Source of the DNA: a virus
IMG/VR virus record: IMGVR_UViG_3300040758_000214
Location: 79,061 to 143,060 of that record
DNA: 64,000 bases
Direction: 5' to 3' (one strand)
This document shows, piece by piece, positions 5,708 through 61,878 of the stretch. The notes below the pieces were generated by a model, which was not told the origin of the DNA, ran no database searches, and saw only the letters and a program-made list of their open reading frames with translations. Positions within the stretch are counted from its first letter, which is position 1; every line of letters starts with the position of its first letter. The translations under genes and the position numbers were made by a program.

Positions 5708-8700
5708 TTATTTTTGTATTCCAATTACTGTAAGATAATTATGTAAAAGTTTTACAGTTTCTGGACATCCATCTATGACTTTTGTTTCTTTATGATCAGA
5801 ATCAATCATTTGTTTAATCCATTGGTTCTTCTTATCAATGCAATCAGACTTTGTAGTTAAGATCTCTCTTAAATTTTCGGTTGCATCTTGCGCTATTAAG
5901 CAGGCGAGTTCCATTTCGCCCGCGCGTTGGCCACCAGGAGGCTTTAAACCCTTATTTAAAATTCCTTTTCGTTTTGTATTTCCACCTCCAATTGGTTGTA
6001 GAGTCTTTTTCATATACAGACCAATTCCTCTTGCAGTCATTTTGCTTTCAGCAATATGAAGCATACGAAAAAAGTACATCCAACCACATGCAATCATATT
6101 CTCAGTAAAACAATCAAATTCAGGGAGATAAACTTTTTGCTCATATTTACTTCCAGTGAATTCCATTGCAATTTTAAGCATTTCTTTAGTACATGATTCA
6201 AATGGGGGTTGAATTATTGTTAACTCTTCAATAAATTCTTTAGTTACAATTAAGGGGACTCTTTCTATAAATTGACTAGAATACCACTTTCCTTTTGTAT
6301 TATCTATCATGGAAATAAATGTAATTAAATAACTCTTTATATCATCTTGAGATTTATCAGAATCTATCATTTGAATTAATTGCTTCTTTAAATTTTCTAA
6401 GGCTAATCCTAAATGTAATTCAAATATTTGTCCGATATTCATTCTAGATGGCACACCTAGAGCATTTATACAAATATCAACATGTCTTCCATCTTCTAAT
6501 CTTGGCATTTTATCATGTGGAACAATTCTTGAAATTACTCCTTTATTTCCATGACGATTTCCTATTTTATCTCCTACTGCAATACTTCTTGTATATACTC
6601 CATACATTTCTACATACATTCCATTAATTTTCTCATTTTTACTTTTATATTTTCCGGTATGAGAAAATTTATCTAAATCATGATCTCTTATAAATTGTAA
6701 AGCTTCATCCTTTGGTAATGAATCATAAATAGGTTTTTGTAATTCTTTTTCATATTCAATTTGACTTTGAATTTTCTTTTCAACCCAATCATTAAATTCT
6801 GGTATTTCTTTATTCCATTCATTTGCATAAATATTAACTTCATTTACACCAACGACTTGTTTCTTAATTGTTAATGGAATAGCTTCTTCAAAGATTGATG
6901 AAAAGTCCATTGGTCCACTTGGTATTTCTTTTAAAATTGCATAAGGAGTTCCTGCTTTAAGAACTTCAAAATTTAAAGGAGATTTACTTTTTGTTGCTTT
7001 TGGATTTGGTAAAGGTTTATAAATCTTTTTCTTTGTTCTCCTTTCTTCTTCTAATTCATCTTTAGTTCTATAAGGAAGATTAAATAAAACTTTACTCGGT
7101 GATAATGTAAATGATAAATCTATAAAATGAATAGAAGTAAAGACGTCTTTTCCATTTATTAATCTATCAGATATTAAAATTCCATCTTCAAAATTATATC
7201 CATCATATGATGTAACTGCAGTTAATAAATTTTTACCAATATTTATTTTACCATTTTTACAAAAACTAGATTCAATTAAAATATCTCCGGCTTTAAATTT
7301 ATCTCCAACTTTAAAATAAATTGAATCAATTAAATCTAAATTTTCAACATATATTTTTCTATAAAAAGTATCAAAAATATCTACGGTTTTATCATCATAT
7401 ACTACAATCATATGATTAGAATCTAAAAATATTACTTCTCCATTTTGTTTAGCTCTTCTTACAAATTGAGTTTGATCTGTATATAATCCTTCACATCCAC
7501 TTTGAATCATTGGAATATCAAAATCTGTAAGACAAATTGATTGCCTCATTTGAGAAGATGCCATTTGTAATCTTGTTTGGTCATCATGTTCTAAAAATGG
7601 AACTAATGATACAGGAATTGAAATAGGTTGTAATTCTAAATATTCATCTGTAAATTTTAAATTTGAGTCAAGAATAGTATTTGGAATTAAATTTTGTAAT
7701 ACTCCACAATTTTCTCTATCTGGAGTATCTACAGGACATACTCTACCAAACATAGAAGGGGTAATATCTCTTAAATGTTTAGGTACATTTTCTCTATCAA
7801 ATCCTCCCGGTCCAACTAAACTTGTTCTTGATAATTTTGTTAATTCATCAATAGGATTAATTGAAAAGTCAAATTGGACTATATCAGACACATTACAATC
7901 TGATAATATCTGAGTTGAATTAATATTAAATTTAGGAGATTTGGCAGTTCTATTTGACATACAAAAATCAAATATCGTTTTAGAAACCTTAGCTAAAACG
8001 ATATATTCAAAACATCTAATTCTTTTATTAATATAATTTGTATCATCTATTTTTTCAGATTGTATTACATCAATCAATTCTTCTAAAATAGATTGAGTTC
8101 TAAAGAATTTAGAAGACATAATATCACACTTTAATATAATATCTAAAGCATATATCATATCTTGACCTTTTTGTGTTGGATCATATTTAGAACTAAATTT
8201 TCCTAGTTCTTTAATAAAATCATCTTGTGAATAATCTTCTGATGTATCATAATATCCTTTTAAATCATAAACTAATTTTTCAATCAATGTGTTTGGTGAT
8301 TCATATTCCATATCTTTTAAACCAAATTTTTGATCTAAATAATCTAATCCATAATATGATAATAATAGAAGAGAAAGAGGAACTATTTTATTTAAAAAAC
8401 TCACTCTAATAAAAGGTTCCTCTTTAAATTCAATCACTGTAAGAGTTGCACAATTAGTTCTAATCTTAATTGTTTTTCCCCTTGTTACAACAGGAATATC
8501 AAACAATTGAAATAATGGAATCTTTCTCTTTCCATTAATATAAAAGTAATTCCCATCTATTAATTTTGGAATAGACATTGATAAATTTATTTCTGCAGTA
8601 AGTTTTTTAAATTTAATAACAATATTCTTTTTTAATGTCCTATCCAATTCTCCTTCCATTGAAAATCTATGATCCCTTATCCCAAAATCAACAATTTCAA

Positions 8701-8830
8701 AACCAAGTTCTTCAGCTGGAACTAATATTTGTCTAATCTTATTTTCTAAATCCTGATATTCATCTTTTCTAATTGTAAATATATTTTTGTTTAAATTGTG
8801 CAATTTGTAAAAAGGATTTATTAAGTCCAT
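5708..8830 (-). CDS. DNA-directed RNA polymerase beta subunit-like (phage set 1)
   Basis: GRVCPVDTPDRENCG, GYNFEDG, GDKIGNRHGNKG, PSRMNIGQ, GGQRAGEME motifs. Confidence 0.95.
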   Translation of the reverse strand: MDLINPFYKLHNLNKNIFTIRKDEYQDLENKIRQILVPAEELGFEIVDFGIRDHRFSMEGELDRTLKKNIVIKFKKLTAEINLSMSIPKLIDGNYFYINGKRKIPLFQLFDIPVVTRGKTIKIRTNCATLTVIEFKEEPFIRVSFLNKIVPLSLLLLSYYGLDYLDQKFGLKDMEYESPNTLIEKLVYDLKGYYDTSEDYSQDDFIKELGKFSSKYDPTQKGQDMIYALDIILKCDIMSSKFFRTQSILEELIDVIQSEKIDDTNYINKRIRCFEYIVLAKVSKTIFDFCMSNRTAKSPKFNINSTQILSDCNVSDIVQFDFSINPIDELTKLSRTSLVGPGGFDRENVPKHLRDITPSMFGRVCPVDTPDRENCGVLQNLIPNTILDSNLKFTDEYLELQPISIPVSLVPFLEHDDQTRLQMASSQMRQSICLTDFDIPMIQSGCEGLYTDQTQFVRRAKQNGEVIFLDSNHMIVVYDDKTVDIFDTFYRKIYVENLDLIDSIYFKVGDKFKAGDILIESSFCKNGKINIGKNLLTAVTSYDGYNFEDGILISDRLINGKDVFTSIHFIDLSFTLSPSKVLFNLPYRTKDELEEERRTKKKIYKPLPNPKATKSKSPLNFEVLKAGTPYAILKEIPSGPMDFSSIFEEAIPLTIKKQVVGVNEVNIYANEWNKEIPEFNDWVEKKIQSQIEYEKELQKPIYDSLPKDEALQFIRDHDLDKFSHTGKYKSKNEKINGMYVEMYGVYTRSIAVGDKIGNRHGNKGVISRIVPHDKMPRLEDGRHVDICINALGVPSRMNIGQIFELHLGLALENLKKQLIQMIDSDKSQDDIKSYLITFISMIDNTKGKWYSSQFIERVPLIVTKEFIEELTIIQPPFESCTKEMLKIAMEFTGSKYEQKVYLPEFDCFTENMIACGWMYFFRMLHIAESKMTARGIGLYMKKTLQPIGGGNTKRKGILNKGLKPPGGQRAGEMELACLIAQDATENLREILTTKSDCIDKKNQWIKQMIDSDHKETKVIDGCPETVKLLHNYLTVIGIQK

Positions 8831-8878
8831 TCATGTCTCCTTTTGGTTTAGTTAAAGTATGGATTGTATGATTTTCAA

Positions 8879-9220
8879 TTAAATATGACGTTGTGAATAA
8901 TTGTTACAATAAACCATTATTGCCTCATATAATGCTAATTTAAAATCTCTATTAGAAGTAGTAACAATCAATGTATGTTCTTTAGTATAATATAACTTAA
9001 CATCAGTTATTTTATTTCCACAACAACAAATATTCTCACTAAAATTTATAGATAATCCGATTGAATTGATTCTTTGTATAGTGCTTTCAACTAAGATTGA
9101 GCTTCCTAAATAATTTGGAAGATATCCAAAGTTTCCCCAAGGATCACACCATCTATTTGCAGAATCCTTTATCATTCCAAAAACTTTTTCAGCAATTTCT
9201 TCATTTGTAATTTTATTCAT
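8879..9220 (-). CDS. hypothetical protein between the RNAP subunit genes
   Basis: 113-aa ORF abutting the beta' stop codon. Confidence 0.55.
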   Translation of the reverse strand: MNKITNEEIAEKVFGMIKDSANRWCDPWGNFGYLPNYLGSSILVESTIQRINSIGLSINFSENICCCGNKITDVKLYYTKEHTLIVTTSNRDFKLALYEAIMVYCNNYSQRHI

Positions 9221-11920
9221 TTAAAACTCCCCTAATAATATTTTGTCAAAAATTCCCTCATAGTTTCCAGAATTTAAAAGTCCCTTAATTATTGCAGATT
9301 TGGGATTCGAAAAAGCAATAGCAAGTAACCATGACTCATTTGTTGGAGCACTTTGGATTGAAAGGAACTTCGGTGTAACTTTATCTCTATTTTTCATTAA
9401 TCTCCATTTATAATGTCCGACCCACATTAATTGCGATACAATAGATTCAAAATGAACATGAAGTATTCCTTTGCTATTATTATAAACATCGAATAAATCA
9501 GAAACTAAATCTTCAGCAGTTTGGTCTTTTTTAAATTTATGGAATAAATCAGACACAATTTTTAAATCACTAATTACATCTGATTGTTCCATATCAACAG
9601 ATCCTTCTTTAATATTTGCTACACCTGATAAGTGGAAGGTACGTAAGGTCAATTGTGTAGTGCACTCCCCCAAAGATTGCGCTCCAAGGATACCTATATA
9701 CTTACTATCATTTAATTTATGAGTATTTCCATAACATGTTAGACAAATTTCTGGTGATGTGCAATATATTGGGCTTCTCACTTTTAACATTTGACCAACT
9801 AATTCTGAGCATTTATTTAATGTAATTAATTCTAATTTATCATTATTTAAATAATATTTATTCACTAACATTTTTGCTTTATTTAAATTTTTAACATATA
9901 CATTTAAATAATCTTTAGTTTCGCAATCCTTTAAATTTTTATTTAATAAAAGATTAACTCCAGTGAATATTAATTTTCTTGATAAATATCCAGAAGTTCC
10001 AGTATTTAAAGCAACATCTAATAATCCTTTTCTACAACCATAAGTTGAATTGAAGAATTCTTCTTCTGTTAATCCATCAAGTAAATTATTTTTAATTGCT
10101 TTAGGATATATTTCTCCATTAAAATTAGATACATATCCTCTGGTTAAAATCATTTGTTTTGCCTGATCCCAATTTCCACGAGCTCCTGAGTCAATTAAGT
10201 ACGAATACTCAAAATTTTCTCTTAATGAATTTTCAATTTCAGGACTTGATAATTTATTAATTTGAGTCATTATATCATTAGACTCATAAATTGAATCTTT
10301 CAATTCTTGAACATTTGGAATTTCACAATGATTTAGAGAAATAGTAGGAGCAAAAATTGTTGCATATTTGAATCCAACTTCTTTAATTTTATCTAGAGTT
10401 TGAACTGTTATATTTTCTGGCCAATTATTTTTAATACCATTTAATATTTTTATCAGATTCTTTTTTATAACTATTTCATTTATTACCGGAAAATCTTCTG
10501 GCAAACATTCATTAAAGATTTTCATTCCTTCTGTAATTTCAATTCCTTTATATACAACTTTATTTAATAATGATGAAATTTTATTAGATGTAAGTGCATA
10601 TAATCCCAATATTATATCTTGAGAAGGAACTGTAGCTAAACTTTCATTTGCAGGACTTGTTAAATTTTTAGTAACTATTAATTTATCTAATGTTTCTTGT
10701 TTTGTCTTTTCTGTGATGGGAATATACACAGCCATCTGGTCTCCATCAAAATCTGCATTGAATCCTGAGCAAACTAATGGATGAATTTTAATAACATTAT
10801 CTAATGAAGTTTTAATTTTAAATCCACAAATACTAAGTCTATGAAGAGATGGTTGTCTATTTAACAAACATACTTCACCTTTAACAATTTCAGAGATATC
10901 ATTGAATAAATCTGGTTTTTTCAATTCGATACAATTATCTATAAAATCAATTGCATCATTTAATAATTTAAATTTACTATGTTCTATTAATCTTTTTGCT
11001 AATGGTAATTTGAATAACTCTAAAACCATAACATATGGAAGAACACATTCATCTAAATTTAATTTTGGATCAGGAATAATAACTGCTCTTCCTGAGAAAT
11101 CAATTCTTTTACCTAATATATTTCCTCTTATTAATCCTTCTTTTTTACTAAGTTTTGTAACTATATGCGCATATAATTCATTTACATCTTTTTGTAATTG
11201 CCTAAAATATTGATAATAGAATTGTTTACTATGTTCTATATCTACAATTGTATTTTGCATTGTTTCTTTTTTTGTTAAAATTTGCATATAATATCTATTT
11301 ATTTCATCTACAATTTGATTATTCTTTTCAGATCCTTTTGCAGCTGGTCTTAAATCAGGTGGTAAAACTATAATATTTCTTATTAATAATGTATCAATAT
11401 TATCTCTAATTAATTTCCATGCAGGAATATCATCTGCTAATGCTATTGAAATTCCATTAACCATTTCATAAATTGCTTCAGTTCTTTCCCATATTCTACA
11501 TCCTGCTTTTACATTTTCTAATTCCTTTACTACAACATAATCATCTCCATCTTTATATAAAATACTTTTTTCATCTTTTAATAATAAGTCTATAGAATTC
11601 ATTAAAGATGAGCCACCTAAAGTGGTAAGTAAATCATAAAATACTGGATTCATAACTTTAATTGGAATTACAATTTTGGCAAATCTTCTTCTTCTTTCAT
11701 AACTATTTACAATATCAACTTGACATACATTACATGCTCCACCATCTGCTCTAGATATACCAAAGTAAGTTCCACACTGACAAGTATAGTTTCTTAATGG
11801 TCCAAAAATCTGTTCAGAAAATAAACCATTAGGATGATAATTCTTTTTGTCCATCATTTTAATGGATGAAACTTCCTTTAAATTTTCACAGAAAGCATTG
11901 ATGTTTAGAAGAGTTGGCAT
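9221..11920 (-). CDS. DNA-directed RNA polymerase beta' subunit-like (phage set 1)
   Basis: N-terminal Zn finger (CQC...CNVC), GKRIDFSGRAVI, NRQPSLH, catalytic NADFDGD, bridge helix TSGYLSRKL, trigger loop TQLTLRTFH. Confidence 0.95.
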   Translation of the reverse strand: MPTLLNINAFCENLKEVSSIKMMDKKNYHPNGLFSEQIFGPLRNYTCQCGTYFGISRADGGACNVCQVDIVNSYERRRRFAKIVIPIKVMNPVFYDLLTTLGGSSLMNSIDLLLKDEKSILYKDGDDYVVVKELENVKAGCRIWERTEAIYEMVNGISIALADDIPAWKLIRDNIDTLLIRNIIVLPPDLRPAAKGSEKNNQIVDEINRYYMQILTKKETMQNTIVDIEHSKQFYYQYFRQLQKDVNELYAHIVTKLSKKEGLIRGNILGKRIDFSGRAVIIPDPKLNLDECVLPYVMVLELFKLPLAKRLIEHSKFKLLNDAIDFIDNCIELKKPDLFNDISEIVKGEVCLLNRQPSLHRLSICGFKIKTSLDNVIKIHPLVCSGFNADFDGDQMAVYIPITEKTKQETLDKLIVTKNLTSPANESLATVPSQDIILGLYALTSNKISSLLNKVVYKGIEITEGMKIFNECLPEDFPVINEIVIKKNLIKILNGIKNNWPENITVQTLDKIKEVGFKYATIFAPTISLNHCEIPNVQELKDSIYESNDIMTQINKLSSPEIENSLRENFEYSYLIDSGARGNWDQAKQMILTRGYVSNFNGEIYPKAIKNNLLDGLTEEEFFNSTYGCRKGLLDVALNTGTSGYLSRKLIFTGVNLLLNKNLKDCETKDYLNVYVKNLNKAKMLVNKYYLNNDKLELITLNKCSELVGQMLKVRSPIYCTSPEICLTCYGNTHKLNDSKYIGILGAQSLGECTTQLTLRTFHLSGVANIKEGSVDMEQSDVISDLKIVSDLFHKFKKDQTAEDLVSDLFDVYNNSKGILHVHFESIVSQLMWVGHYKWRLMKNRDKVTPKFLSIQSAPTNESWLLAIAFSNPKSAIIKGLLNSGNYEGIFDKILLGEF

Positions 11921-12206: not shown

Positions 12207-12348
12207 TTAATTTTTTTGTACGAATCGAAAAAACATCTACCATCATTCCGAAAGACTTATTCACAAACTTTTTTAAACTATCAGAAATATCATCAATTAA
12301 TTCATGAGCTGTTGTTTCTAATTTACTTTTTTCTTTATTATCAGGCAT
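12166..12348 (-). CDS. hypothetical protein
   Basis: 60-aa ORF overlapping neighbours. Confidence 0.5.
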   Translation of the reverse strand: MPDNKEKSKLETTAHELIDDISDSLKKFVNKSFGMMVDVFSIRTKKLIEKQVKGVSDEKK

Positions 12349-12844
12349 ATATCAATTTCTCCTTTTCTACATCATTTTCATCATAACCATTTATGTTCCA
12401 AATAAATCTTTTATTATTTTTTTGTTTTTCTTTATGAATTCTAAAACTAAAATTTTTTGGATCTGATATATTAATAAATTCAAAACAATTCCAATATGAT
12501 TTATAAAAGGTATTATAATTATAAGTTAAGAATTGATGTTCTATTATTTCTAAATCAGAATCTATTTCAAATAAATTTTGTTTAAAGAATTCTTGTATAC
12601 AAAATATATTGGTAACTGGATTTTTATTTGGGTGAGGATTTTTAAACATTATAGATTCCAAATATCCATTTTTTAATTTTATCTCATATTTATTAATAAT
12701 GAATTTATAAGGTATTTTTATTATTTCATATTTTTTTTCATTCTTAATTAATATTTTAGGAATAATGAAACAATTAACTTTTATATGAATGATATTGATC
12801 TTATTTTCAACACTTGCTTTAATCAATTCTATTTTGTTTAGCAT
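12341..12844 (-). CDS. putative E2/UBC-like protein
   Basis: PHPNKNPVTNIFCI resembles the UBC HPN-x7/8-C active-site signature; directly downstream of an E1-like gene. Confidence 0.45.
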   Translation of the reverse strand: MLNKIELIKASVENKINIIHIKVNCFIIPKILIKNEKKYEIIKIPYKFIINKYEIKLKNGYLESIMFKNPHPNKNPVTNIFCIQEFFKQNLFEIDSDLEIIEHQFLTYNYNTFYKSYWNCFEFINISDPKNFSFRIHKEKQKNNKRFIWNINGYDENDVEKEKLIYA

Positions 12845-12858
12845 AAGTATATGTCTCC

Positions 12859-13731
12859 TTATGCCGAAATAGTTTGAGTAATAATTTTTACTAAATATTT
12901 ATTCTGTCTTGCTAAAGGCATACAAACTCTATAAGTCATATTTTTATCTATTAACATTGATAAAATCTGTTCTCTAACATCATCAACATCTTTTAATTGT
13001 GTCATTCTTATTTCTTTTATATTTTCTTTTTTTTCATCTTTTAGAGAAAATAATATTGGAAACTTTTTATTTCTTTCTATAATATCGGATACATGAAGAT
13101 CTAAATCTTCTAATATTTCATCACTATCATGACTTTCAAATATAACATTGACTCCATCATTATAATTTTTAAATTCATAAAAGTCAGATTTTGTTAAATC
13201 TAAATCAATTGAATATAATTTTTTTAAATCTACTAATTCTTTAATCATTCCACTTTCAAAATATTGAGTAGCCATTAATGCAGCCATTTCAATTTTAGAT
13301 TTACTAAGTTCTACAGAATATCTTGTATTTACTAATGGCTTATATGTAATATTTTTTCTACAATCTAAAACTAAAAAATCCGAATATTGAAAATACATTT
13401 TAACATCAACTCTATTATTTCTATTATTAAAATTATCAGTGCAATCTATAATTAAATCAATATTATTCGGGATTATAGTATGATCTATAAAATTTGTTTT
13501 AGAAACAATAACTTTAATATCTTTATAATCTCTAAGTATTTTATTTCTAATTGGATAAACTTTTCCTTGCCCGATATCATTTTGATTATATAATGAATTA
13601 ATCAAATTTTTCTCATTGACAATATCTGAATCATATAATAATAATTCTTTAACACAACCAGATTTAGCTAAATGATATGAAAAGAAACTCCCCAACGATC
13701 CAACTCCAGCAATTAAAATCCTATTAAACAT
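12859..13731 (-). CDS. ThiF/E1-like adenylation-domain protein (divergent second copy)
   Basis: IAGVGSLG nucleotide-binding loop, DSDIVNEKNL, IIDCTDN. Confidence 0.8.
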   Translation of the reverse strand: MFNRILIAGVGSLGSFFSYHLAKSGCVKELLLYDSDIVNEKNLINSLYNQNDIGQGKVYPIRNKILRDYKDIKVIVSKTNFIDHTIIPNNIDLIIDCTDNFNNRNNRVDVKMYFQYSDFLVLDCRKNITYKPLVNTRYSVELSKSKIEMAALMATQYFESGMIKELVDLKKLYSIDLDLTKSDFYEFKNYNDGVNVIFESHDSDEILEDLDLHVSDIIERNKKFPILFSLKDEKKENIKEIRMTQLKDVDDVREQILSMLIDKNMTYRVCMPLARQNKYLVKIITQTISA

Positions 13732-13741
13732 AATACTCCTT

Positions 13742-13975
13742 CTACTGCTTGAAATTCTCCATCCGTTCTACAATATCATTAATTTCGCCTTGTAAAAACT
13801 TAACTTCTGACAAACTAAGTCTTCCTAGTTTTAAAAATTTTCCGTCATTTGATATTCTTGTCAATTGTAATTTAGGGGCTCCACCCTTATAAGAATAAAC
13901 TTCACCTTTAATATTAACATCATCTTCTAAAGGTTTAATTTCAAATAATAATTTGTCATCTTCTTGATTATACAT
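13742..13975 (-). CDS. small protein, possibly PC4/YdbC-like ssDNA-binding
   Basis: 'VYSYKGGAPKLQLTR...KLGRLSLSE' resembles the PC4-like pattern; weak. Confidence 0.4.
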   Translation of the reverse strand: MYNQEDDKLLFEIKPLEDDVNIKGEVYSYKGGAPKLQLTRISNDGKFLKLGRLSLSEVKFLQGEINDIVERMENFKQ

Positions 13976-13994
13976 TTATATCTCCTATGTTTAA

Positions 13995-14026
13995 TGAAAA
14001 GGGATATTTTTACATATCCCTTTTCA
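13995..14026 (-). terminator. intrinsic terminator-like hairpin
   Basis: TGAAAAGGGATAT...ATATCCCTTTTCA inverted repeat ending in a U-rich stem on the minus strand. Confidence 0.6.
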
Positions 14027-14045
14027 ATTTTATTAAACAACTTTA

Positions 14046-14507
14046 TTATTCGGAATAGATATCTATATGATCAGGCATGTATTCACTTTTGAATTGAAAA
14101 TATTTTGCTGCTACTTTTATGGGATAACTCTTTGGAACATCTATTTTTATTCCAGATTTATCATTTTTCTTTGCTGGACAAAATAATAAATTATTTTGAA
14201 TGGCTTCTTGTGCAGCTCTTTCTAATTTTTCAGAATCTGAAATAATAATTTTTTCAATCCAAAATTCAACATTCCTATCAGGGATTATTTCATATGAATT
14301 TTCTCCGCTCATTAAAGCTTTCATTGCTCTTCCAAAAGCAATATTTCTAGATTTCTTTCTAATATGATTATCTAGAATTGAACAGATAGAAATTCCCCTT
14401 GCAATTAATTTTCTATCTGCATCTTCAATTTCACATACTGTAAATGCATTATTTAGTATGTCAGTTTTTTTATATGAATATCTTATTCTTAGATTACTCA
14501 CGTCCAT
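14046..14507 (-). CDS. conserved phage hypothetical protein
   Basis: 'ARGISICSILD...SRNIAFGRA' pattern seen in phage proteins. Confidence 0.6.
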   Translation of the reverse strand: MDVSNLRIRYSYKKTDILNNAFTVCEIEDADRKLIARGISICSILDNHIRKKSRNIAFGRAMKALMSGENSYEIIPDRNVEFWIEKIIISDSEKLERAAQEAIQNNLLFCPAKKNDKSGIKIDVPKSYPIKVAAKYFQFKSEYMPDHIDIYSE

Positions 14508-14531
14508 ATCTATCTCCAGACTATGTTTTTT

Positions 14532-14563
14532 AGGGATGCATTACTTTAATATAATGCATCCCT
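14532..14563. other. stem-loop downstream of the Ubl gene (stabiliser or terminator)
   Basis: AGGGATGCATTA / TAATGCATCCCT perfect 12-bp inverted repeat; no U-tract on the minus strand. Confidence 0.55.
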
Positions 14564-14578
14564 TCCAATTAATAAAAA

Positions 14579-15223
14579 TTACCCTTTACGGCCACTAGTT
14601 TTCAGATATTCAAGATTATCATTTTCCTGAATAACATAATTCAATCCTACTTCTTTTCCACACGCAAGGGCACGAGGAATATTGCTACCAATATTCAGAA
14701 CTTCCTTAAGAAACTCTGCAACCTGTCCAACAGTTTTTCCGATTACATTAAAATTCCCAGAGGAAGCTCCACAAGAAACATGAATAGTGGATTTAATTCT
14801 ATCGGATGAAGAATTAGGATTAACAACAGTATTCTTCATTGTTATTTCCATCGTAGAAATACCACCAATTGACGGACCAGTAACTGTGGATCTTACAGGA
14901 GCACTAGCCACACCAATCTTAGAAAGAATAGCTGCAACTAATTCATCCTTAGGTTTTTTACTCATTCCAGAAATACTAAGTTCCTGACAAATTTCACGAA
15001 GATCAGAATTGGTCAACTCTAGAAGACCTTCTTTTGTATAACGAGGAGCTGTAGCAGAAGAAGTCTGATTGTTGGCGGTTGAACCAGCCTTGGATAAAAT
15101 TGCTTCCATGATAACATCTTTACGTGCTTTACTCATTCCAGTGATACCAAGACTCTGGCAAATTTCACGAAGCTCACCATTGGTTTTTTCAACTAATTCG
15201 CCATAATTATAAGTTCTTGCCAT
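14579..15223 (-). CDS. tandem Rho-N/HeH domains fused to a C-terminal ubiquitin-like (beta-grasp) domain
   Basis: Two repeats 'T..[ED]LREICQ.L.I[TS]GMSK..KD....AILSK'; C-terminal ~70 aa 'IHVSCG...KTVGQV...L...VIQENDNLEYLKTSGRKG*' ending in Gly. Confidence 0.8.
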   Translation of the reverse strand: MARTYNYGELVEKTNGELREICQSLGITGMSKARKDVIMEAILSKAGSTANNQTSSATAPRYTKEGLLELTNSDLREICQELSISGMSKKPKDELVAAILSKIGVASAPVRSTVTGPSIGGISTMEITMKNTVVNPNSSSDRIKSTIHVSCGASSGNFNVIGKTVGQVAEFLKEVLNIGSNIPRALACGKEVGLNYVIQENDNLEYLKTSGRKG

Positions 15224-15316
15224 TTGTAATTCTCCTATTCATTTTTTGGTTTTTACTACAATTAAAGTTATCCTTGTATAGAAAGGATTCTTAATTTAAA
15301 ATTGTATAATTTGGTC

Positions 15317-19707: not shown

Positions 19708-19743
19708 AATGTATTCACCCTTTCACGATTCAATAATTTGGTT

Positions 19744-20046
19744 TTATTTTTTAATATAGAATCTTTCTTTTGTTGGTGTTTCTAAATATTCAACTCTATC
19801 ATATGGAATACTTCTCCATTCTTTCTTTTCTAAATCAAAAACTCTAAGGATATTTTGTTTTACTAAATTTAATATTGCTGCTAAATCAACTTTTTTAGGT
19901 TGTTTTATTTTTGGAATCAAATCAAATTGTAAAGTACATTTCATCATCCTTATTGTTTTATCTTTTTTAATAAATCTAATTATCACTTCTGGTTGTGTTC
20001 TTATAATCTTTAAAAAATCAATTGCATTATTTATTGGTTCATTCAT
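19744..20046 (-). CDS. WYL-like (WYL_2 / SH3 beta-barrel) protein
   Basis: 'IRFIKKDKTIRMMKCTL...VFDLEKKEWRSI' signature. Confidence 0.8.
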   Translation of the reverse strand: MNEPINNAIDFLKIIRTQPEVIIRFIKKDKTIRMMKCTLQFDLIPKIKQPKKVDLAAILNLVKQNILRVFDLEKKEWRSIPYDRVEYLETPTKERFYIKK

Positions 20047-20052
20047 ATCATA

Positions 20053-53350: not shown

Positions 53351-53611
53351 TTAGGATAACGATAATGAGGCGGGTTTTGAATAATTATTCAAATCAAAAA
53401 CTATATTCCCATTTGCAAAAGAGTCTGCATTTTTGACTAATTGTTTTGTAGTTGTAGGCATATTATTATCCACCACATTAATCATTAATCCATCTTTAAA
53501 ATTAAAAACAACACCATCATAAGTTTCTTCAACTTTGAGTAAATTTGTTCTATCAAGTTTAAATTCCATTGTCCCACGTTTAATAATTACACTAAATTGA
53601 CCATGTTCCAT
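53351..53611 (-). CDS. hypothetical protein
   Basis: 86-aa ORF. Confidence 0.6.
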   Translation of the reverse strand: MEHGQFSVIIKRGTMEFKLDRTNLLKVEETYDGVVFNFKDGLMINVVDNNMPTTTKQLVKNADSFANGNIVFDLNNYSKPASLSLS

Positions 53612-53612: not shown

Positions 53613-54227
53613 TTATATTTCTCCTTTCAAAATTTGTACTTCTAATTCAACCAACATTTTAGATTTGTTAGTTTTCTCTATTATGAATTTAATCATATCA
53701 ACCTTTTTATTTGTTCTTAAATATTCAGTTATCATCAAAGGGTAATTATTCTCTTTTATTTTCTCATCAATTAATAAACAAAATTCATTTATATGTTCAT
53801 TACAAAATTGTTCAACATCTATTTTTCTTAAATCAATATTGAAATGTGTCCATAAATTAGATAAAAAAATAATTGGACTATCTAAAAATCTAATTAAATT
53901 ATATACTTCATTTATTTGATATTGATCATTTAATGAATGTTTTAATGGTGGAATATAATTATATATCTCTTCAATCTTATCTAAAATTTTAGTACAAAAT
54001 ACTCTTTGATTTTCAATTGTTTCATTTCTTATTTTGTTTATAACTATATTATAATGTTCTTTAAATTCTTCTGATTCAATTGAATCTAAACAATTCAATA
54101 AGTCATATTGTAATGACGCATTATCCTCCATATCACCATCATCATCTTCTTCAACTTCTAATAATGGCAAACTTGATCCTAATAAAATCTTTTCATTATC
54201 TATCATTTTATTTTCCTTTTTATTCAA
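53613..54227 (-). CDS. hypothetical protein
   Basis: 204-aa ORF with acidic N-terminus. Confidence 0.6.
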   Translation of the reverse strand: MNKKENKMIDNEKILLGSSLPLLEVEEDDDGDMEDNASLQYDLLNCLDSIESEEFKEHYNIVINKIRNETIENQRVFCTKILDKIEEIYNYIPPLKHSLNDQYQINEVYNLIRFLDSPIIFLSNLWTHFNIDLRKIDVEQFCNEHINEFCLLIDEKIKENNYPLMITEYLRTNKKVDMIKFIIEKTNKSKMLVELEVQILKGEI

Positions 54228-54693
54228 TTTACCATAGGTGTTTCATGATTTTTTAAAAATATTTTTAAAATTGGTTTATAATAATCTTTATAAGTAATTT
54301 TTATCGTCTATGTAGAGTGATAAAATGACATAGATTTTATAATTATATATCAGTTCCTTTAAAAAAATGGGATTTCTCCCATTAGTTATTTGATTGGATC
54401 AAATGCATCACAATAATAATCAACGCACATACCTTGCCCAGTACATGTTATTCTCCTGGTACAACTTTCACATTCCTCTACTCTGCTCATTCCAATTTCA
54501 TATTCTTCCATAAGTCACCCCTTCTCAATTTTGTCATATACATTTTGAACAGAATCATAATCCAGTTCGTTTGAACAACCACTCGATCCATCATATAACA
54601 CCATACTGAAATTTTAATTACCTTTAATTCTTCTTCGGTGAATTCCATAATTCACTCCTTTCAAAAATAATTAAATACAACTCCTATTTAGTA

Positions 54694-54707
54694 ATTAATA
54701 TATATAG
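54694..54707 (-). promoter_or_regulatory. putative phage promoter CTATATATATTAAT
   Basis: Copy of the recurrent motif just downstream of the set-2 beta gene. Confidence 0.6.
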
Positions 54708-54718
54708 AATATGAATCC

Positions 54719-57700
54719 TTATCTACCAGTAAGCATTAATGCAATGAAATAACTTTTTATTAAATCTTGAACTGGAGCTGATTTTGCATCTCTATATTTA
54801 GTGGATCCATGATGAATAATATCATTAATCATTTCATTTTTAGTCATATGATCATCAGATAAAGGACCTAACATTTCTGAAAGTAATATTGGAGTATTAT
54901 ATGATATTAAAGAATATGTGTCCATTTCTCCTAGTTTTTGTCCACCTTCTCTTCTTTTACCTGATGTAGGTTGTAATGTCTTTCCTGTAACTGGGCCTGT
55001 AGATCTTGAATAAATTTTCATTTCTCCAATCTGTTCCAATTTCTGTATATACATATAACCAATAGGAACATCATTAGTTGTATATATATTATACTCAGGA
55101 ATTTTTAATTTATATCCACTTTTCAATCCTAATAAATCCATAGCCTGTTTTATTTGGACATGAGTAGGAGCTTGAAATGGTGGAACTATAATTGGAAAAA
55201 ATCCAGTATTTTTAATTTGACTAACCAATTGTTGATAATTAGAATGTGGCATTTTTTCTATTGCTAAAATTAATCTTGTACTATACATTTTATTTTTAGT
55301 ATTATCTAACAATGGTAATATTTTTCTTAATCCATCTGCAACCTTTTTCTGATCATTTGTTTGTACCATTTTAACAGCTAAATTTTTAGCTATTAATCCA
55401 ATATAGATTTCATATAATTGTCCTAAGTTCATTCTTCCTATTATACCAACAGGATTCAAAATCATATCAATTGAATCACCCCAAGGTGTTTTAGGCATAT
55501 CTCCATCTTTTTCAATTAAAGAGATAATTCCTTTATTACCATGTCTATTTGCTAATTTATCTCCTAGTCCGACTCTTAATTCTTGTTGAATTTTAAATTT
55601 AACTAAAACTCCAGCTATACTTTTATGTCGAACTGTAAATTTTTCTTCACTAATTCTTTCATGTTTTTTATTAGTTCGATCTATTAATTCTTTTAACATT
55701 GGAAATTTAGAAGATGGAAGATTACTATAAACTTGTATATCTACAATTATTCCACCTGGACTTTTTAGATCAACTTGTCCACCATGTATTTCTTCATATT
55801 CATCTTCATCCCCTTCTGAGTATCCTAATAATTGCTCTAATTCTCCAGCAGTTTTTCTTAATAAAGGTTCTCCTTTATGTGTCATTGTTCCCATTCTAGA
55901 AATATATAAAAGTCTATCTTTTTCAGAAATCAACATTTCAACTTCTATTCCATGAACAGATGTTAATTTATCCTCATTGATTAATCTTTCATTTATAACA
56001 ACACCATCCTCAAAATTATACCCTTTATAAGGCATTACAGCCACACATAGAGTTCTTCCCATAGAGATGGTACCTTGGGATACAGCACTACCTTCCGCTA
56101 AAATAGACCCTTGTTTAACTACCTGACCAAATCTAACTCTTGGAATAAAAATACTTAATGTATCTTTTCCGCTTCCTGATTTAAGATATACAGGTTCTAA
56201 ACTTATTTTAACTTCTCTATCTTTTCCTTTTACAATAATTAAATCATTTGATAAGAAACTAATTTTTCCATCAAAAGGAGCTTTCTTTATAAAATTGTCA
56301 GATAATACATTTGTTAATAATGATTCATATCCTGATTGAACAACTGGTGGTTCAGGATTTTTTAAAGGTAATGCTTGTCTAGCTTGATTAACTGCCATCA
56401 TTACTCTTGCCCCATCATTATTTTCAACGAAGGGAATTAATACTGAAGATGTAGATAATAATCCAGACTTTTCATCATCATTAATTGGTTTAGTATGAAT
56501 TAATCCTCTGGATGAAGTCAATGCAGCATTAACAGATAAATGTTGAACAATACCAATATTTTCCCCTTCTGGTGTATCAAGAGGATCTATATTTCCAAAA
56601 TAAGAATCATGAACATTTCTTGCACTAACTTGAATAGCTTCTTTTCCAGGAATACCCCCCACTGATTTACCAACTGGAGATAATCTTGTCATTGTAGACA
56701 TTTCTTCGATTGGATTAGCATATTCTATATCTGTAACAATTTCTGAATTAATAAATTCACTTAATATTTTTCCTTGTGGAATATTAAATTTAGCATTTTT
56801 ATTTCCAGATAAAACTTGCCCTTTATATTCTGTATATGCAGCATGAACTTGTTTTTGAACTAAATGTATTAATACTTCTGAATTTCTTATTCTTTGATGG
56901 TCTAAACTATTTCTATCAGTTGCATATCCTTCAACAACTTTAGTTGCCATATATTTCATTATCTCATTTAACTTATGAGGTAATTGTTCATTTGCTAAAA
57001 CTTGCTCAACAATTGGATCAATTAAATTTTCTTGATTTGATAATATCATATATGTTGACTGTGTTCTTCCTGTCAATTTAATAATAAAATCATTAAAAAA
57101 TTCTCTTGTTCCAAATTTCTTTTGAATATTATATGAGTATACATTAGCATGAACAAAGGATTCACAAATTTCCTCTTTAAGGGGTGTATTTATATCTGTG
57201 AATACTATATACTGTGTTTCATTTAAACGACAGGCATATGGAGTTTTTGCTTGTATTTTGTCAACTATTTGGTGACCTATCCCATACTCTCTTAACGTTT
57301 CATCAAATCCAAATAAAAAAAATAAACATATTGAAAATGGAATTGTATAATTTCCCATATATATTTCTAGATATTTTAATTTCCTAGTTCTCTTACTCCA
57401 TATATGAAAACTAGAATAAGAACTTGTAAATCTTGAATCATATGGTTCAGGAAATGTTATAGGATTTAAAACTATTTGATTAATTAAACATTTTCTTTGC
57501 CCATTAACTTTAAATGTACCATATGCATCTATTTTAGGTAAATCAATATTGATATGATGTATATTACCAAATTCATCTTTTAATGTAGCTTTTAATACTA
57601 TTTCATCACTCTTATCAAGTTCCGTATTTTTTCCAAGTTTTTCAACCATTTCAACTTTTTCAACTTTTAATGGAATATTAGCTTTAGATAAAACATTAAA

Positions 57701-58843
57701 TGCATTCTCTGAATCCTTCTTTAAATTAACGTCAAAATCTATTTGTCTTTTCTTAAATAAATGAGTAGGAACATTATTTCCAACCATATTTTTTACATCT
57801 GAATTTTTAATAGTATCTTCTTCTGATGTACTTTGAACTGGTTCTGGATGTAATAATTCATCCTTATACTTTTTATCAATATGTAATAAAGCCTTATTTA
57901 ATTTTACAAGAGGAATTGATTTTGATGTCTTTTTAGATTTATTAAAATTTCCACTAACCTTATATAATATAGAAGCAATTGCTATTTTCTTAGCCTCATC
58001 ATTATCAGTCTCTTTAGTTTGAACTCTATCCAATTCAACTTTATCCTTTGATAAATATCTTGCAATTGCAGATTTAATTCTAGGAGTTTTTATCTCAGGA
58101 TTATCTATACTTATTTTATTAACAACTTCATCAGATGCATTTTGTACTTCCTCAGAATGTTCATCCTCAATATTTTCTATTTCATCTGGATGTCTTGAAA
58201 CTCTTACATTCTTAAGTAAATTATATAAAAGGTTAAATCTAAATACTTTATCCTTAATTAATAATCTATATCTTGTACTTCTATCCCCTACAAATGCCAA
58301 TAACATATTATCATATGGTAAAGATTCATCAGGATTTTTAATTTTTTGTATAAATGGAAATATCTTTCGATTAGCAAATACTGGAATTCCCTTATCAACA
58401 TCTATTGAATATAAAAAAATTTTCCTATAATTAGAGGGAAATTGTGAAAATATAGAGTCAATTATACTTGTTAAAAATACTCCATACCTTGACCTGAAAT
58501 TTGAAGGTTTAAATTTTAAATTTAACGCTTGAATAAAATTAGATATATCAACAATAATATTTTGTCCACTTGGAACCTTTTGTTGTGTAGAATATGCATT
58601 TAATTTAAATTTATCCCTATATAATTTCTTAATCTCGGATTTCCAAAATGTTCTCGGAACTTTAGTTATAGGAACAACCACAGTCTTAAAGTCCATATAC
58701 CTTATATTCAACTTTGGGTAGTCTTCTAAGAATGTAGAATTCTCAGAAAAATATAAAATTACAAAGGGCCTTTTAGGATCTATCTGATATCTTATTCCAT
58801 CCACTTGTTGATTATATAATCTTAATACTTCGAACTTTACCAT
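54719..58843 (-). CDS. DNA-directed RNA polymerase beta subunit-like (phage set 2), long N-terminal extension
   Basis: DTPEGENIG, GYNFEDG, GDKLANRHGNKG, RMNLGQ, RSTGP...QP..G..REGGQKLGEMD. Confidence 0.95.
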   Translation of the reverse strand: MVKFEVLRLYNQQVDGIRYQIDPKRPFVILYFSENSTFLEDYPKLNIRYMDFKTVVVPITKVPRTFWKSEIKKLYRDKFKLNAYSTQQKVPSGQNIIVDISNFIQALNLKFKPSNFRSRYGVFLTSIIDSIFSQFPSNYRKIFLYSIDVDKGIPVFANRKIFPFIQKIKNPDESLPYDNMLLAFVGDRSTRYRLLIKDKVFRFNLLYNLLKNVRVSRHPDEIENIEDEHSEEVQNASDEVVNKISIDNPEIKTPRIKSAIARYLSKDKVELDRVQTKETDNDEAKKIAIASILYKVSGNFNKSKKTSKSIPLVKLNKALLHIDKKYKDELLHPEPVQSTSEEDTIKNSDVKNMVGNNVPTHLFKKRQIDFDVNLKKDSENAFNVLSKANIPLKVEKVEMVEKLGKNTELDKSDEIVLKATLKDEFGNIHHINIDLPKIDAYGTFKVNGQRKCLINQIVLNPITFPEPYDSRFTSSYSSFHIWSKRTRKLKYLEIYMGNYTIPFSICLFFLFGFDETLREYGIGHQIVDKIQAKTPYACRLNETQYIVFTDINTPLKEEICESFVHANVYSYNIQKKFGTREFFNDFIIKLTGRTQSTYMILSNQENLIDPIVEQVLANEQLPHKLNEIMKYMATKVVEGYATDRNSLDHQRIRNSEVLIHLVQKQVHAAYTEYKGQVLSGNKNAKFNIPQGKILSEFINSEIVTDIEYANPIEEMSTMTRLSPVGKSVGGIPGKEAIQVSARNVHDSYFGNIDPLDTPEGENIGIVQHLSVNAALTSSRGLIHTKPINDDEKSGLLSTSSVLIPFVENNDGARVMMAVNQARQALPLKNPEPPVVQSGYESLLTNVLSDNFIKKAPFDGKISFLSNDLIIVKGKDREVKISLEPVYLKSGSGKDTLSIFIPRVRFGQVVKQGSILAEGSAVSQGTISMGRTLCVAVMPYKGYNFEDGVVINERLINEDKLTSVHGIEVEMLISEKDRLLYISRMGTMTHKGEPLLRKTAGELEQLLGYSEGDEDEYEEIHGGQVDLKSPGGIIVDIQVYSNLPSSKFPMLKELIDRTNKKHERISEEKFTVRHKSIAGVLVKFKIQQELRVGLGDKLANRHGNKGIISLIEKDGDMPKTPWGDSIDMILNPVGIIGRMNLGQLYEIYIGLIAKNLAVKMVQTNDQKKVADGLRKILPLLDNTKNKMYSTRLILAIEKMPHSNYQQLVSQIKNTGFFPIIVPPFQAPTHVQIKQAMDLLGLKSGYKLKIPEYNIYTTNDVPIGYMYIQKLEQIGEMKIYSRSTGPVTGKTLQPTSGKRREGGQKLGEMDTYSLISYNTPILLSEMLGPLSDDHMTKNEMINDIIHHGSTKYRDAKSAPVQDLIKSYFIALMLTGR

Positions 58844-58846: not shown

Positions 58847-59530
58847 TTAATGATCCTCTTTCTTTTTAACAAGCGTGCCACTCATAATCTTTTCAATAAT
58901 TGATGGTTCAAGATCTGTCTCACTTATTAATCCGGTTTTTATTACTTCATTGACGTTCTCAAATCCAAGTCCTTGAAGGAATCCGCTTGAAAATATATTT
59001 TTCTTAATATTAACCATTATTGGGTCCCAAGGATGTCCTAACCTCGCCGGTAACGAAGGATTACTTCGATCACGTAAACATTGAGAAAGTAAAACTTCCA
59101 TATGTATTGCATCCATATTTGAAGTACCATATATTGCATATAATTTTCTAAATAAATGTTCTGGTGATTTTGAAATTTCACGTCCCCCAATTAATCTTTC
59201 TATATATGCAACTTGTTGTTTAATTTCAACAGCTTCCAATGGAGCTTCCAAAACAATTGAATCTTTTTTATAATCTAATTCTATAGATTCTTTCCCATGT
59301 TGAATTATATGAATAATATTTAATTTAATTGGATAATCCAAAATTAAATTAAATATTACATCTTCAAATTCGATTTGTGAAACAAGACTCTTACACCAAA
59401 CATCTTGATCAGTAATAATTATATTATCACCTATTTTGTAATATGAGAGATCAATAGTTATTTTACAATCTTTCAAACAAGCTAATATATTACCTTGTTG
59501 TGAGAAATAATGAGATATTTTATTAGGCAC
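58847..59530 (-). CDS. RNA polymerase beta' C-terminal fragment (set 2)
   Basis: 'IHMEVLLSQCLR' and 'SGFLQGLGFEN...IMSG' match beta' C-terminal motifs (KHIEVIVRQM; SFLSAASFQE); GTG start with GGAGG. Confidence 0.8.
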   Translation of the reverse strand: MPNKISHYFSQQGNILACLKDCKITIDLSYYKIGDNIIITDQDVWCKSLVSQIEFEDVIFNLILDYPIKLNIIHIIQHGKESIELDYKKDSIVLEAPLEAVEIKQQVAYIERLIGGREISKSPEHLFRKLYAIYGTSNMDAIHMEVLLSQCLRDRSNPSLPARLGHPWDPIMVNIKKNIFSSGFLQGLGFENVNEVIKTGLISETDLEPSIIEKIMSGTLVKKKEDH

Positions 59531-59535: not shown

Positions 59536-61878
59536 TTATTCCTCCATTAGTGGATCATTCATTACAATATCATTAAGCATGTTTCTTACAGATAGTTTAA
59601 TGCTACCTCCGACGTGAAATTCTTTCATAATTCCCTGCGTGCTCCTCTCACCCAAGATTTGTCCTGCAATTACTCCTATATATGGTGTTTTATGCCTCAT
59701 CAATAATTTTCCATAACATATATGACAAATCTTAGGTGACTCACAATATATTGGCGAACGTAAATGAATTAATTGTCCGACTTTAAATTTTTTAGGATCA
59801 AATTCTTCAACTTCACCATTGACTACAACATACCGACCTGTTATTTTTTTCATTAAATCAGATTCTAATTTAATATCTAGAGTTCTAGAAGTTTTACAAT
59901 CTGTTAAATATGGGTCGGCTTCAACCGAATTTAAAAGATAAACAAGTTTTCTTGAGAGGTAGCCAGTATCTGCTGTCGAAAGTACTCTCGAAATGATACC
60001 TTTTCGAGCACCTGAAGAAGCCAAAAAATACTCAGTAGGTTTAAGTCCTTCAGTATAAGATCCTTTAATAGTAGGTAAAATTTTTCCAGTCGCATCTGCA
60101 ACAATTCCTTTAGATACAAGTATCTGAAAAGGCTGATCGACTCCTTTCGTGGCACCACTATCTAATAAGTCATAAAAACCACTGCCCTCTTTTTTAAGAT
60201 ATTCAACTAATATTTTTCTCATTTGTTGTAATAATTCATTATCTTTTTCAGTATCAGTTCCAGTTAATTTCTTTTTTAAATCATATATTTCTTTAGGCAA
60301 TATTAAATTTTCTAAAGTAAATGTAGGGGAAAGAATAGTTGCAAATTTAAATCCAACTTTTCCTAATTTAGATGTAGTTTTTATTGCTTCTTCATCTCCA
60401 TATTTATCTACTATATCTGAAATTAAATTATTCACCATTTTCTTATCAACTAATTCATTAATAAATATATGATCTTTTGGTAGACAATTATTAAAAATTG
60501 CCTTACCCATTGTAGTATTTCTTCCATTATATACTACTGGATTATATGGATTTTTTGCTTCTTCTAGATCTTTTTCAGTTACATGTATTGCAGGTTTATT
60601 AATCTTAATGTCTTTAGTGATCACATATAATCCCGTACATATTTCTTTAGATAATTCAAATGCTAAACTTTTAGATGAATCTCCAGAAACTGCAGTCATC
60701 ATTTTTTGTATAGCTTCTGCCTGCGCTTCCTCCGAAATTGGAAGATAAATAGCCATTTGGTCGCCATCAAAATCAGCATTCCAACCAGAACATTGGGCTC
60801 CGCATATTTGAATTGTCTCACCGTTAATTAATATTGGTTTAACAGCTCTTAGTGACTCACGATGAAGATCCGGGTCCCGCTTTGCAAGTACTACTCTTCC
60901 CATCATTGCCACTTCAGTAGCTTCAAAAAACATATCATAAAGAGCAGGCGGAATTTTATCACCATTTTTTATACTTTTGATTACACGCTCAACTGAATCT
61001 ACAGACAAATCAGACTTTGTAAATGCTTTGACTTCTCTTTCAAGTTTCTTTTGATCAACTCTTCCCGCATATAATAACTGATGTAAAACAAATGGTTTAA
61101 ATATATTTACGGCTATTTTCAATGGAAGTCCAATTTCATTAACTTTTAGATTTGGGCCTGGGGTAATGACTGCCCGTCCAGAAAAGTCTACACGTTTGGA
61201 TAATAATTGATCTCGAATGACTCCGAATTTTTTACCAATTTTAGTTCTAATAAAATCATCATGTGCAATGACAGCTTTTTGTAATCCATAATTTAATAAG
61301 TCGAATAGTGGACCTTTATGTCCTGCACTTTTAACTTGGAAAGATCTTCTTATTATAGTTACATAATAATCATTTAATGGATCTGCCATTATGGTTCCAT
61401 CTACATCTTTTGTAATAGGTCTTAAATCTGGTGGAATTACTGGAACTTTATCTAGGAATAGAGTTTTATCTTCGTATGCTTTTTGTAGAACACCAATAAA
61501 TTTATCACGATCAGAAGATCCTCCTCTAAAATTAATTTTTGGAAAGATCTTTATGAATTCATTTATGCCTGTAATTCCATTATCAACTTCAATTAGTTGA
61601 CCTTCTTTATCTAAAGAGAATTGACTTTCAGTTGAAATAAATTTAATTATTCTTCTATCTAATTGAATTAATACTTTATATGCAGAAGGATGAATTACAA
61701 ATGCATTTAGATTAATAAATGAGTATTTATTTCTTCTATCAGATGAACCTTCAATTCCAAATATTTTTTCTGAAAGTAATCCATCTTGTTGAAATTCTCC
61801 GGTTCTTGTATAAAATTCAGTGGATGTTACTGGAGTTAAACCTTTAACGAATTGCTCTAGATTTAAGAATTTAATCAT
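59536..61878 (-). CDS. RNA polymerase beta' N-terminal/catalytic part (set 2)
   Basis: KRVDFSGRAVI, RDPDLH, NADFDGD, TADTGYLSRKL, trigger helix TQGIMKEFH; no N-terminal Zn finger. Confidence 0.95.
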   Translation of the reverse strand: MIKFLNLEQFVKGLTPVTSTEFYTRTGEFQQDGLLSEKIFGIEGSSDRRNKYSFINLNAFVIHPSAYKVLIQLDRRIIKFISTESQFSLDKEGQLIEVDNGITGINEFIKIFPKINFRGGSSDRDKFIGVLQKAYEDKTLFLDKVPVIPPDLRPITKDVDGTIMADPLNDYYVTIIRRSFQVKSAGHKGPLFDLLNYGLQKAVIAHDDFIRTKIGKKFGVIRDQLLSKRVDFSGRAVITPGPNLKVNEIGLPLKIAVNIFKPFVLHQLLYAGRVDQKKLEREVKAFTKSDLSVDSVERVIKSIKNGDKIPPALYDMFFEATEVAMMGRVVLAKRDPDLHRESLRAVKPILINGETIQICGAQCSGWNADFDGDQMAIYLPISEEAQAEAIQKMMTAVSGDSSKSLAFELSKEICTGLYVITKDIKINKPAIHVTEKDLEEAKNPYNPVVYNGRNTTMGKAIFNNCLPKDHIFINELVDKKMVNNLISDIVDKYGDEEAIKTTSKLGKVGFKFATILSPTFTLENLILPKEIYDLKKKLTGTDTEKDNELLQQMRKILVEYLKKEGSGFYDLLDSGATKGVDQPFQILVSKGIVADATGKILPTIKGSYTEGLKPTEYFLASSGARKGIISRVLSTADTGYLSRKLVYLLNSVEADPYLTDCKTSRTLDIKLESDLMKKITGRYVVVNGEVEEFDPKKFKVGQLIHLRSPIYCESPKICHICYGKLLMRHKTPYIGVIAGQILGERSTQGIMKEFHVGGSIKLSVRNMLNDIVMNDPLMEE

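Follow-up and report, generated by a model that had tools for sequence, protein, structure and literature searches.

The 64,000-nucleotide stretch of DNA analysed here (the window) covers positions 79,061 to 143,060 of the IMG/VR virus record IMGVR_UViG_3300040758_000214 and encodes two multisubunit RNA polymerases (RNAPs), each with its own β′ and β subunit. It is the terminal portion of a single viral contig of 143,060 bp with a G+C content of 28%, and all of its genes lie on the minus strand. The two polymerases, which we call set 1 and set 2, are encoded by the following open reading frames (ORFs):

5708..8830, minus strand: set 1 β, 1040 amino acids (aa), compact, without the sequence insertions SI1 and SI2; Pfam Rpb2_3/6/7
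9221..11920, minus strand: set 1 β′, 899 aa, complete and unsplit; Pfam Rpb1_2/3/4/5
54719..58843, minus strand: set 2 β, 1374 aa, with an extra N-terminal module; Pfam Rpb2 domains
58847..59530, minus strand: C-terminal piece of set 2 β′, 227 aa, recognised by alignment to an unsplit relative
59536..61878, minus strand: N-terminal piece of set 2 β′, 780 aa; Pfam Rpb1 domains

Pfam domains and motif positions agree on the identity of both sets. The NADFDGD motif lies at residue 388 of set 1 β′ and residue 367 of set 2 β′, RHGNKG at residue 759 of set 1 β and residue 1100 of set 2 β, and GEME at residue 971 of set 1 β. The sets share only 30% identity in β′ and 29% in β, and Rpb2_6 matches the contig exactly twice. 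Upstream of β in each set lies β′, an order shared by all relatives and the reverse of the bacterial rpoB-rpoC order, and the genes adjoining either set are phage genes, whereas the bacterial pair sits in a ribosomal-protein/rpoBC context. Searches for α (PF01000) and for σ70 region 2 (PF04542) gave no match at E ≤ 1 in this record and three relatives (G000 to G003), which are incomplete records (82% at best); the control genomes were positive. An earlier reading of the same DNA, made from the sequence only, had described two highly diverged β/β′ sets with intact NADFDGD and RHGNKG motifs, β′ ahead of β, no adjoining α, σ or ribosomal genes, and two polymerase cores with near-intact, cell-like subunits. 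Each of these points was borne out.

At least seven independent contigs (G000 to G006) carry both sets, at a distance of 25–50 kb from each other; one of them, a record of 356,681 bp, has a completeness rating of 100%. The two-set layout is therefore no misassembly. A β′ tree (72 rows by 824 columns, LG+C20; 11 rows for set 1, 12 for set 2 and 29 for Bacteria) recovered set 1 and set 2 as sister clades with a Shimodaira-Hasegawa-like approximate likelihood ratio support of 100, and placed Bacteria apart from them, also with a support of 100. The β tree was congruent, with the two sets again as sisters (support 100) and Bacteria separate. The sequence-only reading had named loci on different molecules, or one set nested inside a bacterial clade, as outcomes that would speak against two phage polymerases; we found the loci together on each of these contigs and no such nesting in either tree. 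Since the sets form sister clades outside a monophyletic Bacteria, neither of them is, on this topology, a recent bacterial capture. Phylogenetically, they are paralogues derived from the duplication of a β′-β operon in an ancestral phage, and not two captures from bacteria.

We then compared the subunits with those of cellular RNAPs. We found counterparts of the E. coli lid, clamp helices, bridge helix, second zinc site and two trigger-loop helices in the alignments of both sets. The full element set of a bacterial β′ is not present in either, as both are devoid of the rudder and of most of the β′ region past the trigger loop, which includes the ω-binding part of the E. coli subunit; SI1 and SI2 are absent as well. 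The zinc ribbon is deleted in set 2 and kept at the N-terminus of set 1 β′ (C47, C49, C63 and C66). Mapping on E. coli further showed that set 1 β′ has no trigger-loop insertion and that the flap tip of set 1 β is largely deleted. The last 125 residues of set 1 β′ align to the C-terminus of set 2 β′, and its orthologues are 53–73% identical to it. At the equivalents of the E. coli rifampicin-pocket positions D516 and H526, set 1 has F and K, and set 2 has E and T.

Matches to the bacterial β′ and β chains of the PDB reached E values of 1e-65 to 1e-91, and the best bacterial β′ matches, at 27–33% identity, were scattered across many phyla. This likeness bears on an arrangement in which the phage β′ and β would form hybrid enzymes with host α, ω and σ and thereby redirect the host machinery. 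The subunits are indeed far closer to bacterial β′ and β than are the polymerase pieces of phages phiKZ and AR9, the σ-binding clamp helices align in both sets, set 1 keeps its zinc ribbon, and no phage α or σ was found in the four records searched. We nevertheless regard hybrid enzymes as quite improbable: the rudder and most of the post-trigger-loop region of β′ are missing, the flap tip of set 1 is largely gone, identity to any bacterial enzyme is only about 30%, and the related phiKZ and AR9 enzymes function without α (PMC7598289).

Set 2 β′, which the sequence-only reading had treated as a single gene, is encoded in two pieces of 780 and 227 aa. The 227-aa ORF is 56% identical to residues 777–1002 of a 1008-aa relative (P0003) and, by this alignment, is the C-terminal part of set 2 β′. 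The larger piece, from which the zinc ribbon is deleted, starts at the N-terminus and takes in the bridge helix and the first helix of the trigger loop; the insertion in this loop, its second helix and the C-terminus are on the smaller piece. The junction consists of a stop, a GGAGG ribosome-binding site and a GTG start. When mapped on E. coli β′, the split point lies about 22 residues past the FHxGG of the first trigger-loop helix, at the start of an insertion of about 115 aa at the SI3 position. The position of the split in the trigger loop is a new observation. Most relatives keep one gene: among the 120 best homologues, set 2 β′ mostly measures about 1005 aa, and a minority subclade has a size of 776–783 aa. 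The same split is present in contig L191 (Ga0187869_10058395, 2017 bp), which is 99–100% identical to 58.3–60.3 kb of the window; it is filed under another record name and may share the sample of the window's record.

At this site, relatives are either unsplit, split with an insert of 0.5–1 kb, split without an insert, or interrupted by an apparent intein. In contig L007, the segment between the two β′ pieces (12353–13240) encodes a homing endonuclease (phrog_3339, E 8e-52), and inserts at the same place were also found in L189, L196, L204 and L207. A deeper relative, L008 (IMGVR_UViG_3300035698_017019), encodes at 7338–11585 a set-2-type β′ of 1415 aa with a trigger-loop insert of about 410 aa, which opens with Cys behind KH, closes with HN ahead of TGG and includes LAGLIDADG-like blocks. 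It has the appearance of an intein and occupies the site that is split in other relatives. Judged from these sequences, the trigger loop of set 2 β′ is a hotspot for homing endonucleases and an intein, and the intact, intein, endonuclease and bare-split states offer a stepwise view of how mobile elements fragment polymerase genes.

A β′ in two ORFs can also be read as decay, which would make the second set an artefact, be it a decaying redundant copy, a recent host capture or a chimeric assembly. We give this almost no credence. The same pair of loci is found on at least seven independent contigs, and neither set falls within Bacteria. The split comes with a ribosome-binding site of its own and recurs in a whole subclade, with or without a homing endonuclease, as well as in L191. 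Furthermore, both pieces are 50–70% identical to their orthologues, with all motifs intact.

The long N-terminal extension of set 2 β, also noted in the sequence-only reading, was confirmed. In the alignment to PDB chains, residues 434–466 correspond to residues 131–163 of bacterial β, leaving about 300 extra residues. The resulting module is lineage-specific and comprises about 430 aa, about 300 of them past the bacterial N-terminus. An AlphaFold2 model of residues 1–440, with a predicted local distance difference test (pLDDT) score of 77, displays an α/β domain (10–213) and a helical domain (219–325). A Foldseek search with the module returned nothing below E 1e-3, and its sequence contains no Walker A motif. 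The only VIA-align matches, to folds resembling P-loop kinases or signal recognition particle GTPases, had Z scores of ≤7.5, so that the module has no confident fold match and was assigned no function.

In more than 20 contigs, the set 2 operon comprises u150, β′, β, d204 and d86. The corresponding genes around set 2 in the window are:

63856..64000, minus strand: C-terminal end of u150, cut by the contig end; tblastn E 4e-6 to the u150 of contig L006
61881..63849, minus strand: six small ORFs between u150 and set 2 β′, 74–125 aa, from the ORF list
53613..54227, minus strand: d204, a conserved gene of about 200 aa after set 2 β; synteny in more than 20 contigs
53351..53611, minus strand: d86, a conserved gene of about 86 aa after d204, cysteine-free

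The first gene of the operon, u150, encodes a conserved protein of about 150 aa without a match in the ESM Atlas and is directly upstream of β′ in about 22 relatives. The AlphaFold2 model of d204 (pLDDT 83) shows a helical body behind a disordered, acidic N-terminus; searches with d204 found no fold, Pfam or PHROG match, the best fold match having a Z of 6.3. The position of d86 is conserved in more than 20 contigs, at 29–52% identity. Both d204 and d86 are candidate accessory subunits. At least three of the six small ORFs are Cys-rich (CxxC ... CxxC, zinc-ribbon-like), and these ORFs have no counterpart in relatives. Between set 2 β and d204, the window contains an ORF-free stretch of 491 bp (54228–54718); in most relatives d204 is directly next to β.

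We propose that the phage encodes two complete paralogous cores that lack α and σ70 and divide their labour in the manner of phiKZ and AR9, with set 2 as the virion enzyme, a reading that we hold to be reasonably probable. Each β′/β core would presumably work with phage-specific factors, because no recognisable α or σ70 partner was found. Set 2, consisting of u150, the two β′ pieces, β with its N-terminal module, d204 and d86, would be made alongside the late genes and packed into the particle. Carried over in this way, it would be responsible for early transcription in the next infection. The middle and late genes would fall to set 1, which would be produced only after infection. For both sets, we infer activity, timing of expression, packaging and the roles of u150, d204 and d86 from sequence comparisons.

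The assignment of set 2 draws first on a tree of the β′ N-terminal region (37 rows by 407 columns). A short query for the phiKZ/AR9 catalytic region gave no match. Because the AR9 genes are interrupted by introns, the phiKZ and AR9 proteins were represented in the trees by first exons and N-terminal pieces only. Exon 1 of AR9 gp144 and phiKZ gp180, two β′ N-terminal pieces annotated as virion or head proteins, fell inside the set 2 clade with a support of 99, and each remained there when placed singly (99 and 100). The non-virion pieces of both phages were nearest to set 1, in a placement without resolution. An approximately unbiased test rejected a clade of set 1 and set 2 that leaves out the virion pieces (p 0.0006) and marginally rejected a single clade of all four phiKZ and AR9 pieces (p 0.036). 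BLAST scores point the same way: gp144 reached 104 bits with set 2 and 42 with set 1, and gp180 reached 75.5 and 33.5 bits, respectively. Both proteins also share with set 2 an N-terminus that lacks the zinc ribbon and carries IFGxxGSxDR. This placement shows the N-terminal region of set 2 β′ to be orthologous to the virion-RNAP pieces of phiKZ and AR9, and set 2 looks like the uncut counterpart of the polymerase carried in their particles. It is possible, at slightly less than an even chance, that a single duplication gave rise both to set 1 and set 2 and to the non-virion and virion polymerases of phiKZ- and AR9-type jumbo phages; the present lineage would then have kept both enzymes in an ancestral form, uncut and encoded in operons.

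A second line of evidence comes from an upstream motif. TAGAACA[AT][AT] is enriched upstream of genes in this genome (9 observed vs 0.6 expected), is often followed by a TATAAA-like element, and precedes TerL and virion structural genes. In 9 relatives it lies ahead of u150, at 35–55 nt from the ribosome-binding site; it was not consistently found before set 1. A TAGAACA-type motif also lies 40–100 nt upstream of d86 in relatives, and a variant, TAAGAACAAAT, is present here at 53709–53719 on the minus strand. Searches allowing two mismatches performed at chance level (97 found, 100 expected), so that only exact upstream TAGAACA is informative. We also observed TTTAGAACAAAT followed by an A/T-rich TATAAA-like element 25–60 nt before the starts of TerL, virion structural and other genes, at the following positions:

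24350, 38233, 43050, 45234, 67150 and 68656 of G000: TTTAGAACAAAT motif
42318–42328 of the window, minus strand: TTTAGAACAAAT motif
44717–44727 of the window, minus strand: TTTAGAACAAAT motif

This promoter-like motif is a candidate late promoter of the lineage.

Finally, set 2 is poor in cysteine: across relatives, its content falls below that of set 1 by a factor of 2–2.6 (0.6% vs 1.27% in β, and 0.83% vs 2.16% in β′). The placement of the virion pieces, the motif shared with structural genes and the low cysteine content thus speak for set 2 as the enzyme that would be made late and packaged, and it appears the likelier virion enzyme of the two. The sequence-only reading had arrived at the same choice, which these comparisons uphold indirectly.

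Several observations weigh against this assignment. The phiKZ and AR9 β and β′ C-terminal pieces did not separate set 1 from set 2 by BLAST. The orthology signal comes from about 260–400 N-terminal residues of β′, with very long phiKZ and AR9 branches and quick-search trees. The TAGAACA motif was also found ahead of a homing endonuclease gene, a membrane protein gene and genes of unknown function, so that its designation as late is a deduction, and the set 2 promoter region of this genome is past the contig end. The association of low cysteine with packaging is a lead only, and the case for packaging is built on sequence for every member of the lineage. In addition, both sets are located within one long co-directional block of replication and nucleotide-metabolism genes, outside the head genes.

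This last point agrees with a scheme in which both polymerases are made only after infection and neither is packaged, with the host RNAP transcribing the early genes, one or both phage sets among them, and the phage enzymes serving different later classes or templates. The evidence for packaging is indirect, which also agrees with such a scheme, as does the late-promoter-like TATAAA beside the TAGAACA motif in this T4-like lineage. We consider this scheme rather unlikely, since the virion-RNAP pieces of AR9 and phiKZ cluster with set 2 β′, the structural-gene motif stands before the set 2 operon in relatives, and an enzyme made late would be poorly suited to late transcription unless it were carried to the next infection.

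We assign the phage to mReC (multimeric-RNAP-encoding Caudovirales), a lineage of large T4-like phages described as 97 metagenomic tailed-phage contigs with long β and β′ subunits that are sister to Bacteria (Weinheimer & Aylward 2020, Nat Commun 11:4506, PMC7481178). The supplement of that study lists 'a' sets (β of about 1362–1367 and β′ of about 1002–1009) and 'b' sets (β of about 999–1019 and β′ of about 899–903), which occur together on single contigs of 149, 277 and 308 kb (PMC7481178). The 'a' sizes correspond to set 2 and the 'b' sizes to set 1. As in this contig, the mReC members are uncultured tailed phages with T4-type structural genes. One of the supplement contigs, Ga0180432_10000070 (L017, 149,482 bp), encodes a set 1 whose β′ is 59% and β 57% identical to those of the window. 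The mReC contigs were defined by β and β′ of at least 800 aa with NADxDGD; set 1 has both features, set 2 β measures 1374 aa, and the split set 2 β′ of this genome would fall below the 800-aa filter. The RNAP groups with phage RNAPs outside the cellular clades, and the contig carries tailed-phage hallmarks. At the level of the lineage, the two-set layout was thus already on record in 2020. The text of that study uses RNAP as one phylogenetic marker and is silent on duplication, gene order, partner genes and a link to virion or non-virion enzymes (PMC7481178). New here, for a lineage that was itself known, are the duplication history, the mechanism of the split, the partner genes that relatives conserve, the low cysteine content of set 2, the motif ahead of its operon and its connection with the virion RNAPs.

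Phages of the phiKZ-like (Chimalliviridae) and AR9/PBS-like groups resemble this lineage in having two β/β′ sets and no α or σ70 (PMC7598289, PMC4666361). Their RNAP genes contain homing endonucleases and introns, and the set 2 relatives are likewise invaded. In phiKZ and AR9, however, each core is divided among 4–5 polypeptides whose genes are scattered, and both share a β′ split after the double-psi β-barrel domain, whereas each set of this lineage forms a compact β′-then-β operon with at most one split, located in the trigger loop instead. In a BLAST comparison with the subunits of set 1 and set 2, d204 and d86, phiKZ gp68, which like AR9 gp226 is a fifth, σ-like specificity subunit, gave no match, this being the only search for gp68 or AR9 gp226 made in this record.

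Reviews from 2020 (PMC7598289) and 2026 (PMC13282480) leave undecided whether the virion and non-virion RNAPs originated by duplication or by two acquisitions, and the virion enzyme had never been purified at the time of the former (PMC7598289). If the duplication were indeed shared, this question would be settled in favour of duplication, and the lineage would provide tractable two-subunit versions of that enzyme. The phylogenetic question becomes answerable because compact β′-β operons that can still be aligned with bacterial RNAP exist in a widespread, uncultured lineage. Constructs of two genes, or three in the present genome, would lend themselves to expression, structural and promoter studies. 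The operons also indicate that an α-less β′/β core is not tied to the fragmentation of its subunits.

Among cultured phages, the best matches, at 25–27% identity, were Yersinia phage YerA41 and Rhizobium phage RHph_TM30, which do not belong to the phiKZ group and encode bacterial-like β′ and β (GenBank annotations). YerA41 has the order β′N, β′C, β, as in set 2, and its catalytic motif reads NLDYDGD. One β′ locus was found per record in these two phages, compared with two here. RHph_TM30 formed a long branch placed weakly beside Bacteria, outside the clade of set 1 and set 2; YerA41 was absent from the trees. The moraphages (PMC12619734) were considered as the lineage of this phage and rejected, as they have no RNAP. 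A separate viral clade among the IMG/VR contigs (L018 to L044) has β and β′ fused in one ORF of 2000–2900 aa in the bacterial order, with GNKG near residue 780 and NADFDGD near residue 1400.

CheckV rated the completeness of the 143-kb contig at 46%, so the genome of the phage is probably about 310 kb in size. Records of relatives reach 255–357 kb, and together these values suggest that roughly half of a jumbo phage genome is present in the contig. When viral contigs were scanned with a single protein, no close relative was returned; the relatives were found with an alignment query. The first 79 kb of the contig encode a tail sheath, a baseplate wedge, the large terminase and a lytic tail protein, as well as RtcB and a CCA-adding enzyme. 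The gene content of the window includes a split type II topoisomerase, an SbcCD-like nuclease, a helicase, a ThiF/JAB cluster and six tRNAs.

Between the two genes of set 1 lies one further ORF:

8879..9220, minus strand: 113-aa ORF between set 1 β′ and β, without a Pfam or PHROG match

It has no similarity to β′ and no counterpart in related loci. We considered it as a C-terminal piece of set 1 β′ and rejected this, as it is dissimilar to β′, whose own C-terminus is already complete.

Directly upstream of set 1, positions 12341–21078 of the window contain a cluster of radical-SAM, E2-like, JAB, ThiF/E1, ubiquitin-like and second ThiF genes. This ubiquitin-like conjugation cluster precedes set 1 in all seven of the set 1 relatives examined, which points to a functional link between the set 1 RNAP and the cluster. 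Two intergenic segments of the window (13976–14045 and 14508–14578) each contain a G+C-rich hairpin, followed by AAACATAG and then a ribosome-binding site; the hairpin and AAACATAG may represent a terminator plus a second class of promoter.

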